Position numbers and translations under genes: made by a program
In this document: positions 33,870-40,669 of the stretch, piece by piece
Position numbering within the stretch: the stretch's first letter is position 1
Layout of the letters: the number at the start of each line of letters is the position of its first letter
The notes under the pieces: model-generated
The model's database searches: none
Told to the model about the DNA's origin: nothing
The model's input: the letters and a program-made list of their open reading frames with translations, nothing else
Virus record (IMG/VR): IMGVR_UViG_3300029581_000002
Source of the DNA: a virus
Taxonomy: Duplodnaviria > Heunggongvirae > Uroviricota > Caudoviricetes
Length of the DNA: 64,000 bases
Reading direction: 5' to 3' (one strand)

Positions 33870-33931
33870 CAGAAGACTTATTTATGCTATATCAATCGCT
33901 TATGATTACCTCAATGCTGTAAGTCTTCTTA
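33870..33931 (-). promoter_or_regulatory. family-1 hairpin (CAGAAGNNN ... NNNCTTCTTA) immediately 5' of tRNA-Ser(GCT)
   Basis: Inverted repeat agaagactta/taagtcttct. The same architecture recurs 5' of four other tRNAs. Confidence 0.5.
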
Positions 33932-33950
33932 GAAATTCACTGTAAAAGGA

Positions 33951-35912
33951 TTACTTTACAGGAGGAAAATTATCACCTTTAGCTGGTGATTCTTCTGGCT
34001 TCTTGCCAGTGATTATTTGCTTAAGCGAATCTGCAATGGGCAAATTGCGAGCAATTTCCAAGCTTGGAGCAAGATTCTTAGCCATATTAGCCATGAACTG
34101 CCCAGCAGTATTGGAATCACCATACACAGTAACATTACCAAGCTGGATATGTTCAAACACCTTAGCGTTGGCTTCAGCAACTTCTTTCCACCTGTCGGTC
34201 ATTGCATATTGAACGATTGCTTCAGGATGCATACCTGATTTAATCATATGTTCAACTGCAAGAGCCGGAGCCATTTCCATTGCCTGTTTCTGTTCAGCTT
34301 CTGCCATTAAAGATGCTTTCTTACCTTCAGCTTCAGCAAGAAGTTTCTTCTTGGTACCTTCAGCTTCTGCTTCCAGTTGCATCTTAGTAGCATTTGCTTT
34401 AGCTTCTGCTGCTTTCAAGATTTTAGCTGCTTCCGCTTCTGCTTCAAGAATGGCTACACTCTTAACAGCTTCTGCTTCAATTTTAGCTTTCTCTTTGGCT
34501 TTCTCGGCAGGTATAATTACTTCAGCTTTAAGCTTAGCTTCTTCAGCTTTAGCTTTAGCTTCGTTAACTTCCACCTGACGTTCTTGCTCTGTTTTAGCAA
34601 CTGCCATTTGAGCTTCAACTTTAGAAGTACCAGCTACTCTTTCTGCTTCAGCTTTAGCTTTCTCTGCTTCTCCCTTAGCTTTGGAAACTTCAATAGTAGC
34701 TTTCTGTTCAGCTACTCCTGCTGCTTTCTCTGCTTCAGCTGCCTTTTGACGGGCTTCTGATTCATACTGTGCAGTTTTAGCTTCCTTTTCCTGCTGTGCT
34801 TTAACAGTTTCAGCTTCTTGGTTTTGTGCTGCTACTGCCATACGAACTTCCTTCTCTGCTTCTGCTTCTGCCTTAGCGGCTTCAGCTTTGGCAGTAAATT
34901 CTGCTTCTTTAGCAGTTGCATAAGCTTGCTGCTCTGCAATCTTAGCAGCTCTTAATGCTTCTTGCTCGGCAACTTTGGATGCTTCTTCAGTTTGGGCTGT
35001 AGCCACACCAATTTCACGTTCCTTTCTTTGCTCTGCAACAGCAATTTGCTGCTCCTTATGCTGCTCGGCCAATTGAGTTTCTTTCTCTTTAGTGGTCTTA
35101 GCAATAGCAACTTCTTTCTCCCTGTTAGTTTCAGCCACTATAGTTTCTTGCTCCTTAGTAGCTGCTGCAATTGCAATCTCCTTCTCTCTCGTAGTTTGAG
35201 CTATCTGGATTGCTCCTTTCTTCTCTTCTTCTGCGATATCAGCTTGTGATTGCGCTCTTGCTTTAGTCTCTTCTTTCTTACCAAGATTATCAATATATTG
35301 AGCAGCATCTTGAATGTCACTGATATTGATATTCATCAGATAAAGACCAAGTTTGTTCAATTCTGTATTGATATTGTCTCTAGCTTGAGCTAGGAACTTG
35401 TCTCTGTCAGAGTTAAGCTCTTCAATAGTCATCGAAGCAATAACAAGCCTCATCTGACCATAAACAATATCTGAAATCAAACTTTCTTTAACGTCATCAT
35501 CAGCACCTAGTAAGCGATTAGCAGCATTCTGCATAATCAGCGGTTCTTGGCTAATAGCAACAGTTACAGTGGTAGGGATAGTTACACGAATATTTTGAGC
35601 TGACAAAGCATTCTTCAATACAAGATTCAATTGAATCGGCTGCATTGACATTACTTCATAACCCTGTATAATCGGCCATACAAAAGCTGCACCACCATGA
35701 TAAACTTTGGCAGTTTTAATTTCAACTTCTCTGTCAACCAGATTACCTTTAGCGTCGCGTTCGCTAACTTTCTCTTTGTGAGAGCCTGTTTTACCATAAA
35801 CTACCAACAATTCGTCAGATTTACATTTACGGTAGCGGGATAGAATCCCAATGATAGTGATGATTGCAACTAGTACAACTACACCAACGATAATTAATGA
35901 TGTCATTTCCAT
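33951..35912 (-). CDS. flotillin/SPFH (band-7) family membrane protein
   Basis: N-terminal TM helix, an SPFH-like domain, then about 300 aa of A/E/K-rich coiled coil (EAEAEK repeats) as in YqiK/FloT. Confidence 0.6.
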   Translation of the reverse strand: MEMTSLIIVGVVVLVAIITIIGILSRYRKCKSDELLVVYGKTGSHKEKVSERDAKGNLVDREVEIKTAKVYHGGAAFVWPIIQGYEVMSMQPIQLNLVLKNALSAQNIRVTIPTTVTVAISQEPLIMQNAANRLLGADDDVKESLISDIVYGQMRLVIASMTIEELNSDRDKFLAQARDNINTELNKLGLYLMNINISDIQDAAQYIDNLGKKEETKARAQSQADIAEEEKKGAIQIAQTTREKEIAIAAATKEQETIVAETNREKEVAIAKTTKEKETQLAEQHKEQQIAVAEQRKEREIGVATAQTEEASKVAEQEALRAAKIAEQQAYATAKEAEFTAKAEAAKAEAEAEKEVRMAVAAQNQEAETVKAQQEKEAKTAQYESEARQKAAEAEKAAGVAEQKATIEVSKAKGEAEKAKAEAERVAGTSKVEAQMAVAKTEQERQVEVNEAKAKAEEAKLKAEVIIPAEKAKEKAKIEAEAVKSVAILEAEAEAAKILKAAEAKANATKMQLEAEAEGTKKKLLAEAEGKKASLMAEAEQKQAMEMAPALAVEHMIKSGMHPEAIVQYAMTDRWKEVAEANAKVFEHIQLGNVTVYGDSNTAGQFMANMAKNLAPSLEIARNLPIADSLKQIITGKKPEESPAKGDNFPPVK

Positions 35913-35925
35913 CTTGAAATTGGTA

Positions 35926-36447
35926 TTAATCTATGTATAATTTATTGTCTTCGTATTTACGAATCGTTACTGGCTCATTGACAGGATATATCTTCTTATT
36001 AAGAGATACAACTTCTACTTCTCTCAATGCTCCACTTATGTTCACGGATGCCAAATGGCGCCCTTCACCTAAATGTACATAGATAGTAGCAGTTCTGCCA
36101 ACTAAGTTAGTCTTCGGTTCGTCTTTAGGAAGGTTCTGCAATTTCATACAGAACTTATATAAATGATACAGCATAAATACAAATACAAGACCTATAAAGA
36201 ATCCTATTAACCAATCAATCCAGGTTACTTCATAACCTAATAATTGCTTAATAGATGTCCATCCTCCGAATCCCATGAAGAAATGGATAAATCCTTTAAA
36301 GGATACAACATCACTGACATCAAAATCAGCATCACCATCAAAGTCTACATCGACATCGAACTCCCCAGCAACCCATGATATTATGAATTGTAGGATAAAT
36401 ATACCATAGGCGATGCCTCCTAAGATATAATACAAGTTATTGTCCAT
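35926..36447 (-). CDS. NfeD-like membrane protein (partner of SPFH/flotillin)
   Basis: Multi-TM N-terminal region plus a C-terminal soluble beta-rich domain (..RTATIYVHLGEGRHLASVNISG..VVSL). It sits immediately upstream of the flotillin gene, as in yqiJ-yqiK. Confidence 0.5.
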   Translation of the reverse strand: MDNNLYYILGGIAYGIFILQFIISWVAGEFDVDVDFDGDADFDVSDVVSFKGFIHFFMGFGGWTSIKQLLGYEVTWIDWLIGFFIGLVFVFMLYHLYKFCMKLQNLPKDEPKTNLVGRTATIYVHLGEGRHLASVNISGALREVEVVSLNKKIYPVNEPVTIRKYEDNKLYID

Positions 36448-36476
36448 CTTACTAATAATTATTTAATCTATTAAAG

Positions 36477-36551
36477 TGGGGCGAAATGGAGTCGAACCAT
36501 TATCTCTGGATTTTCAGTCCAGCGCGAACTGACCACCTGCGCTACCGCCCC
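36477..36551 (-). tRNA. tRNA-Phe(GAA)
   Basis: Acceptor GGGGCGG/TCGCCCC, anticodon stem CTGGA/TCCAG with loop CTGAAAA, T arm AATGG TTCGACT CCATT. The D arm is slightly atypical. Confidence 0.6.
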
Positions 36552-36851
36552 ATACTGCCTACACATACGTCTTCACTGGATTTTATGCTTTATTACGCCA
36601 GTTGCTTTGGACAGTCTAAATCCTTCGGTGCTGTACAGCTATACATATATTAACGAGGCCTCAACATTAATTAAGCTGCCATCGCACCTACTCCCATTAC
36701 TTCGTCACGCAACGTACCCTACATTCCACTTTAGGATTTTCACCTAACCACATCCTCGGCATTCCGTTTCAAGATAAAATATAACTCTGCTGAATAAGTC
36801 AAACCAAACAGGAAGATTTATGATACGTTTATACTTAAACAGCAGAATTGG

Positions 36852-36925
36852 GTGACATACGAGACTTGAACTCGTAACCCTTAGAACCACAACCTAATGC
36901 TCTGCCAATTGAGCTAATGCCACCA
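36852..36925 (-). tRNA. tRNA-His(GTG) with encoded G-1
   Basis: Acceptor GTGGCAT/ATGTCAC with an extra 5' G opposite discriminator C, D arm GCTC AATTGGCA GAGC, anticodon loop TTGTGGT. Confidence 0.7.
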
Positions 36926-36932
36926 TATTGAG

Positions 36933-40128: not shown

Positions 40129-40267
40129 ATATCAATACGACTTATGGGCTTAACTATGAAACAGGTTAATCAAATCATAAATTAAAAGTTGTTGGGTTGA
40201 TTGTTGAGTTGATTTGATGATTGTTTAGTGAAACTATATATTATTGTGTTAATTATGGTTCTTATTA

Positions 40268-40297
40268 AAACTACTCTATTCTCACGAACTGAGTAGT
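40268..40297 (-). repeat. family-2 hairpin 3' of tRNA-Pro
   Basis: aactactc TATTCTCACGAACT gagtagtt. Confidence 0.5.
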
Positions 40298-40353
40298 TGT
40301 CCATATTTGCTATTATGGGATTATCAGCATCCTCTCTTGGATGCCACGGGGAG

Positions 40354-40426
40354 TATGGGTAGCCAGACTCGAACTGGCGACAACTAGGTCCCAAACCTAG
40401 CATTCTACCTACTGAATTACACCCAT
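40354..40426 (-). tRNA. tRNA-Pro(TGG)
   Basis: Acceptor ATGGGTG/TACCCAT, D arm ATTC AGTAGGTA GAAT, anticodon stem CTAGG/CCTAG with loop TTTGGGA, T arm GCCAG TTCGAGT CTGGC. Confidence 0.65.
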
Positions 40427-40431
40427 AACTA

Positions 40432-40500
40432 CAGAAGTCTCTTAGTTTAATTAAAATCATAAAATATGAAACACTTTCTTTCGTGCTGTAAGACTTCTTA
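40432..40500 (-). promoter_or_regulatory. family-1 hairpin 5' of tRNA-Pro
   Basis: acagaagtct ... gtgctgtaagacttctta. Confidence 0.5.
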
Positions 40501-40528
40501 TTCAAAGCTATTGAAAATTGTTGTATTG

Positions 40529-40602
40529 TGGGTGTGCCTGGAATTGAACCAGGGACCTCATCCTTATCAGAGATGTGCTCTAACCGACTGAGCTACACAC
40601 CC
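40529..40602 (-). tRNA. tRNA-Ile(GAT)
   Basis: GGGTGTG TA GCTC AGTCGGTTA GAGC, anticodon stem CATCT/GGATG with loop CTGATAA, T arm CCTGG TTCAATT CCAGG. Confidence 0.7.
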
Positions 40603-40606
40603 ATCA

Positions 40607-40669
40607 TCAGAAGACAATAGATTCATTTACTTATGCCAACATACAGGAAATTGCTGTTTGTCTTCTTAA
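40607..40669 (-). promoter_or_regulatory. family-1 hairpin 5' of tRNA-Ile
   Basis: atcatcagaagacaa ... ttgctgtttgtcttcttaa. Confidence 0.5.

Follow-up and report, generated by a model that had tools for sequence, protein, structure and literature searches.

Covarying hairpins in front of phage tRNA genes: an RNA family very probably coupled to a Ro60-like gene

What are the short inverted elements that precede some, and not other, tRNA genes of a phage tRNA array, and which molecule might recognize them? This question is raised by the Caudoviricetes record IMGVR_UViG_3300029581_000002, a large myovirus-type contig from gut metagenomes, of which a stretch of 64,000 nucleotides (nt) was analysed (hereafter the window) and in which an initial annotation, made from the sequence, had described five such elements. 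We find that these elements are real covarying RNA hairpins, and we hold with high confidence that they belong to a structured RNA family coupled to a gene for a Ro60-like protein. On balance we favour the view that the hairpins are Y-RNA-like modules which bind this phage protein and whose 3′ ends are generated by RNase P at the adjacent tRNA.

Covarying hairpins 5′ of tRNA genes

The plus-strand pattern CAGAAG-N35-65-CTTCTTA has exactly five matches in the window, and all five lie where the initial annotation had placed them, before tRNA-Ser(GCT), Arg(TCT), Lys, Pro and Ile; only 0.17 matches are expected by chance, and none of 100 dinucleotide shuffles reaches five. ARAGORN predicts 28 tRNA genes in the window and the real ones are all on the minus strand, so that each element stands immediately 5′ of its tRNA. 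A plus-strand tRNA-Arg(TCG) call at 33760-33836 is an antisense artefact overlapping tRNA-Ser(GCU); Rfam supports the minus-strand gene only. In the RNA sense, the element reads UA-[AGAAGNCN..]-(U)ACAGCA-interior-[..NGNCUUCU]-G-N3AU-tRNA(+1). A sixth copy, overlooked at first, was found directly 5′ of tRNA-Thr(UGU) by the unfiltered covariance model R1, which was built from an alignment (A2) of 20 diverse copies; its stem has covaried to AGGAGAUG/CGUCUCCU. A strict structural scan of the window returns exactly these six matches, every one of them on the minus strand:

31640-31685, minus strand: copy before tRNA-Thr(UGU) (31556-31639), reading AAGGAGAUG-UCAGCA-13 nt-CGUCUCCU-G-UUUAU, 15 nt after tRNA-Asp; R1 37.4 bits, E 2e-6; strict structural scan.
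33864-33933 (plus-strand pattern coordinates 33870-33931), minus strand: copy before tRNA-Ser(GCU) (33775-33863), with a 10-bp stem AGAAGACUUA/UAAGUCUUCU, CAGCA right after the 5′ arm, and G plus the 6-nt spacer UGGAUU; R1 58.4 bits; strict scan.
38193-38250 (pattern 38198-38248), minus strand: copy before tRNA-Arg(UCU) (38119-38192), with an 8-bp stem AGAAGGCA/UGCCUUCU and spacer G-AUGAU; R1 46 bits; strict scan.
39974-40041 (pattern 39979-40039), minus strand: copy before tRNA-Lys(UUU) (39899-39973), with stem AGAAGGCG(U)/(G)CGCCUUCU and spacer G-CGGAU, 14 nt after tRNA-Cys; R1 53.6 bits; strict scan.
40427-40502 (pattern 40432-40500), minus strand: copy before tRNA-Pro(UGG) (40353-40426), with stem AGAAGUCU/AGACUUCU, extendable past a 2-nt bulge, and spacer G-UAGUU; R1 53.2 bits; strict scan.
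40603-40670 (pattern 40608-40668), minus strand: copy before tRNA-Ile(GAU) (40528-40602), with a 9-bp stem AGAAGACAA/UUGUCUUCU and spacer G-AUGAU; R1 51.1 bits; strict scan.

The first five copies fold with an outer stem of 8-10 bp, as had been proposed; in all six, the stems are A/U-rich, the interior loops span 13-48 nt, and the distance from the G that follows the stem, as in the CUUCUG motif, to tRNA position +1 is 5-6 nt. Four of the six are located 14-40 nt downstream of another tRNA or tRNA-like gene. Across the family, the module has three parts: a basal stem, whose closing A-G/C-U pairs are conserved and which is bordered by an A.G juxtaposition; directly above it, on the 5′ strand, the unpaired and invariant (U/A)ACAGCA(A); and a variable interior with a length between 13 and more than 150 nt. 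In its broader form, the consensus reads AUA-AGAAGACU-(U)A-CAGCAAAUU...CU-G(A/U)UAAU, amounting to about 10 conserved unpaired nucleotides plus the helix. The fixed TGCTGT box of the initial annotation can be recognized here as the complement of the invariant CAGCA lying just 3′ of the 5′ arm in the RNA; the Arg copy has TGCTGA instead. No conserved complement of CAGCA was found in the spacer or the tRNA, and the stem sequence does not correlate with tRNA identity (ACU, for example, occurs in the Pro, Ser and Thr copies alike).

The covariation is extensive. Among the 20 diverse copies, 98% of the cells are paired, with compensatory changes at four of the eight pairs. When 65 distinct copies from 28 sources are considered, 97.1% of the cells are paired, compared with 72% in shuffles and 39-55% in slid controls; compensatory changes affect all eight stem pairs, and there are 117 double-change cells against 29.5 in shuffles. 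The earlier suggestion that the middle bases of the stem covary and that the structure is under selection is borne out, and the hairpins are real covarying RNA structures. In a wobble census that allowed one non-Watson-Crick pair of any kind, 25 G.U and 6 A.C pairs were counted in the tRNA sense, and the unique elements numbered 246 on the gene strand and 6 on the opposite one. This G.U excess and this gene-strand bias indicate that the folding strand is the transcribed strand.

A covariance-model search of the kind suggested by the initial annotation yielded not only the sixth copy of the window but also many copies in relatives, again with covariation. Scanning IMG/VR with the hairpin DNA pattern led to many related contigs of 90-270 kb, in which 69 of 158 matches have a same-strand tRNA 4-7 nt downstream; the loci sampled (those of relatives are numbered with the prefix L) contain 310 unique units, some false positives included. 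In these relatives, tandem arrays of 3-8 units occur, in which the units are 4 nt apart (...CU-GAUA-AG...), the stems are entirely different and the junction CUG-AUA-AG is kept. The following examples were delineated with the covariance model and the structural scan:

L009, 2746-3048: tandem array.
L059, 8373-7923: tandem array.
L090, 6952-7333 and 7987-8311: two tandem arrays.
L001, 5096-4827: tandem array.

Other units are situated about 5 nt before the 5′ end of a transfer-messenger RNA (tmRNA; L181 and L193) or 20-40 nt 5′ of the start codons of open reading frames (ORFs). The window also has a tmRNA of about 520 nt (47155-47676, minus strand; Rfam 85.7 bits), as do relatives, and no hairpin element precedes this window copy. 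The element is therefore not specific to tRNAs, as had been supposed: relatives have tRNA-free tandem arrays as well as copies before tmRNA, in 5′ untranslated regions (UTRs) and over the start codon of one gene. What stands of the earlier proposal is the 5′-leader position, the element forming the tRNA 5′ leader in the window at its fixed 5-6 nt. Of the 66 tRNA-adjacent copies in relatives, 59 have U at position −1 and 46 have A at −2. RNase P prefers substrates with U at −1, and these leaders are in keeping with this. The fixed spacing does not extend to lineage C (L161 15887-15924, L078, L092, L160), since a second small perfect hairpin, e.g. ACCCACAUC...GAUGUGGGU, is inserted there between a long Y-like element and the tRNA.

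Coupling to a Ro60-like gene

The proposed partner of the hairpins is encoded upstream of them:

43174-44901, minus strand: gene for a 575-aa Ro60-like protein with a helical repeat region and a vWA domain, on the same strand as the six hairpins and 2.5 to 11.5 kb upstream of them.

The link to this gene, 2.5 kb upstream, had not been seen by the initial annotation. Its predicted structure combines a helical-repeat TROVE-type region with a C-terminal vWA domain, and Ro60 is the closest fold in a fold search, which is the sole tie between this ORF and Ro60. In PHROGs it is labelled 'RNA-binding protein' (phrog_850). The window protein has no Pfam match, neither to TROVE nor to vWA_Ro60, whereas its homologues carry PF11443 (DUF2828) and PF25043 (DUF7788); in the homologue from L009, for instance, Pfam reports DUF7788 (2e-9), vWA_Ro60 (0.0016, below the cut-off) and DUF2828 (0.0022). 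The DUF2828/DUF7788 partner family has no TROVE Pfam match, a sequence search of the PDB with the L009 homologue came back empty, and the literature on DUF2828 offered nothing relevant. Directly upstream of the Ro60-like gene, the non-coding stretch at 45172-45279 (minus strand) contains a RAGATH-34 RNA (Rfam 120.9 bits); RAGATH-34 was absent from 13 other loci scanned with Rfam, and this copy appears to be specific to the lineage of the window.

The coupling holds in both directions of search. In L009, four tandem units lead directly into a 567-aa ORF that is homologous to ORF 43174-44901 (30% identity, E 5e-99), and wherever a lineage genuinely has the element, tblastn detected the Ro60-like protein as well, these loci having been collected by the hairpin DNA pattern alone. 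Conversely, a profile of ten homologues (A3) retrieved 79 viral loci by protein alone (1.5 Mb, 33-98% identity), which were oriented with the gene on the plus strand. On these loci, R1 gave 116 matches at E < 1e-3, present in 44 of the 54 non-close loci and all on the gene strand, and the strict scan found 379 elements on the plus strand, 7 on the minus strand and 1 in shuffled sequence; altogether 76 of the 79 protein-collected loci have the element. In 26 diverse neighbourhoods, no other protein family is common to more than six, so the link between hairpin and gene is not ordinary synteny. In tRNA-poor lineages (L201, L208, L211, L212, L214, L198), arrays of 3-8 units abut the Ro60-like gene itself. 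A survey of 185,579 bacterial and archaeal species genomes revealed the protein in only 14 contigs of metagenome-assembled genomes, which are probably phage DNA; there too, the elements are on the gene strand only. Taken together, these observations leave us in little doubt that the structured RNA family is coupled to the Ro60-like gene.

A still closer association is seen in one clade, where 11 distinct Ro-like gene starts read A-AG-AUG-UUU-(A/G)AC-AGC-AAA in the mRNA, followed by 39-66 variable nt and ACAUCU-G. Each of these gene starts constitutes a complete element with the start codon inside the 5′ arm. Apart from this, the N-terminus of the protein shows little conservation, and it is predicted to be disordered. 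Autogenous translational operators are well known from T4 gp32 and RegA, from ribosomal proteins and from the MS2 coat hairpin. We infer that the start-codon copy has the layout of such an operator, the AUG of the Ro-like gene being held in the 5′ arm, and take this as a hint of direct protein-RNA binding; the window's own Ro-like gene has no operator copy at its start codon.

Probable Y-RNA-like modules and rival explanations

The conservation of Ro60 and Y RNAs extends from bacteria to humans; Ro60 is a major human autoantigen, and the core function of both is still debated. Bacterial YrlA Y RNAs are encoded next to rsr and display a T-arm, a closed acceptor stem and a D-arm, with the conserved 5′-strand motif GNCGAAN0-1G; YrlA of M. 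smegmatis is cut by RNase P (PMC4201824). The hairpin family resembles these bacterial Y RNAs (YrlA/YrlB, Yrn1; Rfam RF02553) in lying close to a Ro60-type gene on the same strand, often with several RNAs per locus, in the pairing of its 5′ and 3′ ends into a basal stem (7-10 bp), which is the putative binding site, and in the conserved 5′-strand motif above this stem. It differs in having ACAGCAA and AG/CU closing pairs instead of GNCGAAN0-1G or GGUCCGA, in its 3 to more than 10 copies per locus, in the fusion of many copies 5-6 nt upstream of genuine tRNAs or tmRNA within a tRNA array, and in its partner, a DUF2828/DUF7788 protein; moreover, all matches remain below the gathering score. A phage precedent is also available: the Ro60 of Thermus phage phiLo binds two phage-encoded Y-like RNAs, Yrl1 and Yrl2 (PMC12135203; PDB 9KOP, 9L5Y). 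These are likewise short hairpin-type RNAs beside the gene of a phage Ro60 homologue, but they have a CGAA motif, lie upstream of the gene, are only two in number and are not fused to tRNAs.

The long relatives of the family strengthen the comparison, as they share the domain order of YrlA: in printed examples, a T-arm, an acceptor-like stem closed by a small loop and a D-arm are enclosed by the basal stem. A T-loop motif is found in 71 of 89 unique elements with an interior of at least 90 nt, versus 9 of 157 short ones. In L161, the sole locus of relatives scanned with Rfam YrlA at sub-threshold scores, the model matches 15781-15897 with 44.2 bits (E 1e-7 to 4e-9) in an alignment that spans T-arm, closed acceptor stem and D-arm and in which ACAGCAA occupies the position of the YrlA motif with a different sequence. 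Between tRNA-Phe and tRNA-Ser, this locus has a second sub-threshold match (17853-17951, plus strand; 33 bits, E 2e-4), which lacks the strict AG...CAGCA...CUG signature; these arrays probably contain more diverged Y-like RNAs. At the Arg-UCU, Lys, Thr and Ser-GCU positions, the members are long in lineage C and short in the window, which identifies the basal module as the constant part. Because three features that define YrlA (its motif, its tRNA-like domain and a score at the gathering level) are lacking in the window copies, the latter are named here Y-RNA-like, not YrlA.

The following scheme can be proposed. The module would be transcribed on the minus strand within a polycistronic tRNA precursor, and RNase P cleavage at position +1 of the adjacent tRNA would free the tRNA and leave a hairpin RNA with a 3′ tail of 5-6 nt. 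Its basal stem and ACAGCA would then be bound by the Ro60-like protein of ORF 43174-44901, as Y RNAs bind Ro60/Rsr, and this binding would either regulate the protein, as a gate or a tether, or recruit it to the phage tRNA precursors. Hairpin transcription, release by RNase P, physical binding and downstream function are all steps that we infer; for RNase P processing of the hairpin-tRNA precursors, it is only the spacing and the U at −1 that point this way. RNA ends set by RNase P or RNase Z at an adjacent tRNA fold are known from MALAT1-mascRNA, the tRNA-miRNA transcripts of murine gammaherpesvirus 68 (MHV68) and plant tRNA-snoRNA. The proposed route to the 3′ end of the hairpin RNA is alike, although those systems are eukaryotic or herpesviral.

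Several observations weigh against this interpretation. The six window copies have no tRNA-like domain (interiors of 13-48 nt, no T-loop), the window yields no match to Rfam YrlA at E ≤ 0.05, and even the long relative in L161 remains under the YrlA gathering score (44 vs 69 bits). The conserved ACAGCAA also differs from the known Ro60-binding motif of Y RNAs (GGUCCGA / GNCGAAN0-1G / CGAA). Three of the 79 protein loci have no element match, and L041 has two units and no Ro60-like gene within its 14.5-kb locus. Some units sit shortly upstream of unrelated ORFs, and in relatives there is a strong isoacceptor bias, the hairpin preceding Ile-GAU in 25 of 31 unique contexts, Pro-UGG in 25 of 34, Val-UAC in 11 of 15 and Arg-UCU in 21 of 31 (68-81%); in the tRNA arrays of relatives, no copy stands in front of Leu, Asp, Phe, His, Ser-UGA, Gly or CUA suppressor tRNAs. 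Finally, hairpins and gene might lie together because both serve one tRNA-expression module, the RNA and the protein making no contact. With these points weighed, Y-RNA-like modules bound by the Ro60-like protein and released by RNase P remain the explanation that we consider rather probable.

A bolder variant, which we regard as speculative and on the whole improbable, is that of a 'split Y RNA' in which the hairpin and the following pre-tRNA act jointly before processing. The hairpin would represent the Ro-binding basal module and the pre-tRNA 5 nt downstream would replace the tRNA-like domain of YrlA, so that the Ro60-like ring would be tethered in cis to selected pre-tRNAs. If true, the tethered targets would be the Ile, Pro, Val, Arg-UCU, Lys, Ser-GCU and Thr pre-tRNAs and pre-tmRNA, and the tether might serve as a folding check, as a shield from host or anticodon nucleases, or for handover to processing enzymes. 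In some lineages the protein would also repress its own mRNA through the start-codon copy.

Among the rival explanations, the one that survives best, though we doubt it, is a punctuation mark for processing or stability that acts independently of the Ro60-like protein: the conserved flanks (AUA-AG...CU-GAUA) would be cut or bound by a host or phage endonuclease, or the hairpin would block an exonuclease, and the element would thereby separate polycistronic units and protect 5′ leaders or 3′ trailers. Such a role would fit an element that is always intergenic and in sense orientation, that is found between tRNAs, before tmRNA and in 5′ UTRs, and that keeps both its junction in arrays and its distance to tRNA +1. 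It does not account for arrays of up to eight units with nothing between them to punctuate, for the tRNA-like domain of the long members, or for the copy enclosing the start codon of the Ro-like protein. Nor does it explain why the element is accompanied by a single protein family in 76 of 79 loci that have unrelated neighbourhoods in all other respects.

It is very unlikely that the element is a signal at the DNA level, either a promoter of tRNA genes, as the initial annotation had envisaged, or an attC-type hairpin or cruciform recombination site that shuffles tRNA cassettes. The position upstream of tRNA genes, the conserved ends around an interior of varying length and the repeated hairpin-gene units, which look like cassette arrays, are all compatible with this idea; G.T wobble is tolerated in single-stranded DNA too, so that the wobble census fixes the strand and not the molecule. 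However, the distance between the conserved halves ranges from 51 to more than 150 nt while their complementarity is maintained, which a promoter would not demand, G.U outnumbers A.C, and the units of arrays follow each other at 4 nt. The four window copies that closely follow another tRNA or tRNA-like gene are apparently inside one transcription unit. Sigma-70 consensus sites occur at chance level and none coincides with an element, in a scan that does not cover Bacteroidota-type promoters; when such promoters were sought by eye, TAnnTTTG boxes were seen upstream of only two of the six copies, with no consistent box in the loop, and this candidate was rejected. No recombinase is conserved nearby, and the T-arm, D-arm and acceptor modules of the long members make sense only as RNA.

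We give equally little credence to a new small self-cleaving ribozyme that would mature tRNA 5′ ends as a counterpart to the theta ribozymes at 3′ ends. Theta (minimal HDV-like, for hepatitis delta virus) ribozymes are known at the 3′ ends of tRNAs in gut phages and possess a double pseudoknot and a catalytic C (PMC10879173). The hairpin element shares with them its nature as a small structured RNA, its place in tRNA arrays of gut Caudoviricetes and a constant spacing to one end of the tRNA, and its conserved unpaired nucleotides and helix have the size of a small ribozyme core. Yet no known ribozyme family, be it hammerhead, HDV-like/theta, twister, pistol, hatchet or hairpin, matches (window at Rfam gathering scores; 33300-43200 at E ≤ 5; whole window at E ≤ 0.05), the interior varies freely, units in arrays and at the start codon would yield no obvious cleavage product, and the U at −1 already suits RNase P. 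Two specific identities were rejected. A theta or HDV-like ribozyme does not fit in geometry, the element having neither the double pseudoknot nor the catalytic C and no HDV-type Rfam match. For the hammerhead, CUUCUG-AUGA of the Ile and Arg copies resembles the core CUGAUGA, and a UA that precedes the stem would be the site of cleavage; in the remaining four copies the sequence is CUGCGGA, CUGUGGA, CUGUAGU and CUGUUUA, so that the core CUGANGA is present in two of six, and there is no Rfam match. Least credible of all is an intrinsic terminator or attenuator controlling read-through into each tRNA: the stems of many relatives are followed by G and a U/A-rich run (e.g. GUUUAA or GUUUUU), but the window copies continue with AUGAU, CGGAU or UGGAUU and the tRNA, without a U tract, their A/U-rich stems enclose loops of 13-48 nt, a terminator scan calls none of the six, and tandem arrays of terminators make little sense.

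Neighbouring features and meaning

Other features of the window and its relatives deserve mention. Within the tRNA array, the tRNA at 40783-40855 (minus strand) has the anticodon CUA (ARAGORN label 'Pyl', amber-suppressor type), which suggests UAG recoding in part of this phage; in relatives, the hairpin precedes none of 14 suppressor tRNAs. Between this tRNA and the Ile hairpin, 40709-40776 (minus strand) is a tRNA-like sequence with a good acceptor stem, a T-arm and a CAU anticodon loop, but with an aberrant D region and a sub-threshold Rfam tRNA score (20.8 bits). Two G+C-richer non-coding stretches on the minus strand, of about 190 nt (37615-37810, upstream of tRNA-Ala) and about 300 nt (36552-36849, between tRNA-His and tRNA-Phe), have no Rfam match at E ≤ 5 and are outside the hairpin family; the former is kept in relatives and has obvious hairpins. 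They may correspond to the 'other families' of the initial annotation. The gene at 33951-35912 (minus strand), which ends just before the Ser-GCU hairpin, encodes a 653-aa SPFH/Band 7 protein (Pfam E 1e-24) whose long tail is helical and repetitive; some RNA-repair gene neighbourhoods include Band-7 proteins. ORF 29079-30146 (minus strand) matches phrog_1211, annotated as a PurZ-type adenylosuccinate synthetase (E 1.6e-46), and may point to a modified-base (2-aminoadenine) pathway. In two relatives, other RNAs occur in the vicinity of the hairpin arrays and the Ro-like gene: a Hatchet ribozyme (L009 1620-1705, plus strand; 68.6 bits) at about 1 kb and a group I intron (L059 363-650, minus strand; 92.2 bits) at about 5.5-7 kb. 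A DNA similarity search of INPHARED, a phage collection, gave only tRNA-sized matches. A 670-aa protein of the phage shares 47% identity with proteins of Bacillus phage TsarBomba and Serratia phage phiMAM1, which indicates that the phage is not crAss-like.

Y RNAs next to Ro60 genes are already known, including in some phages. Not described in the papers that we could search are the DUF2828/DUF7788 partner family, the putative recognition module of ACAGCAA and AG-CU, the high copy number, the fusion 5′ of genuine tRNAs and tmRNA in phage arrays, and the start-codon copy. The family occurs in big gut phages, probably of Bacteroidales. If our interpretation is true, this would be a large natural family in which numerous short Y-like RNAs, recognized through a new motif, are the partners of a highly diverged Ro60-like protein; the RNAs would be built directly into the precursors of tRNA and tmRNA and, in one clade, a copy would take in the start codon of the protein itself. 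A function is thereby suggested for Pfam DUF2828/DUF7788 and for phrog_850, and the alignments offer clean covariation data from which a model of the new RNA family can be built. In the picture of phage tRNA maturation, a 5′-side element is added beside the 3′-side theta ribozymes. The layout makes testable the role of Ro60-type rings on tRNA-shaped RNAs, and the reason why phages with large tRNA arrays carry such proteins. Should the hairpin and the pre-tRNA indeed act jointly, the diverged Ro60/Y-RNA pair would have given rise to a virus-encoded ribonucleoprotein system for the surveillance of tRNA precursors.

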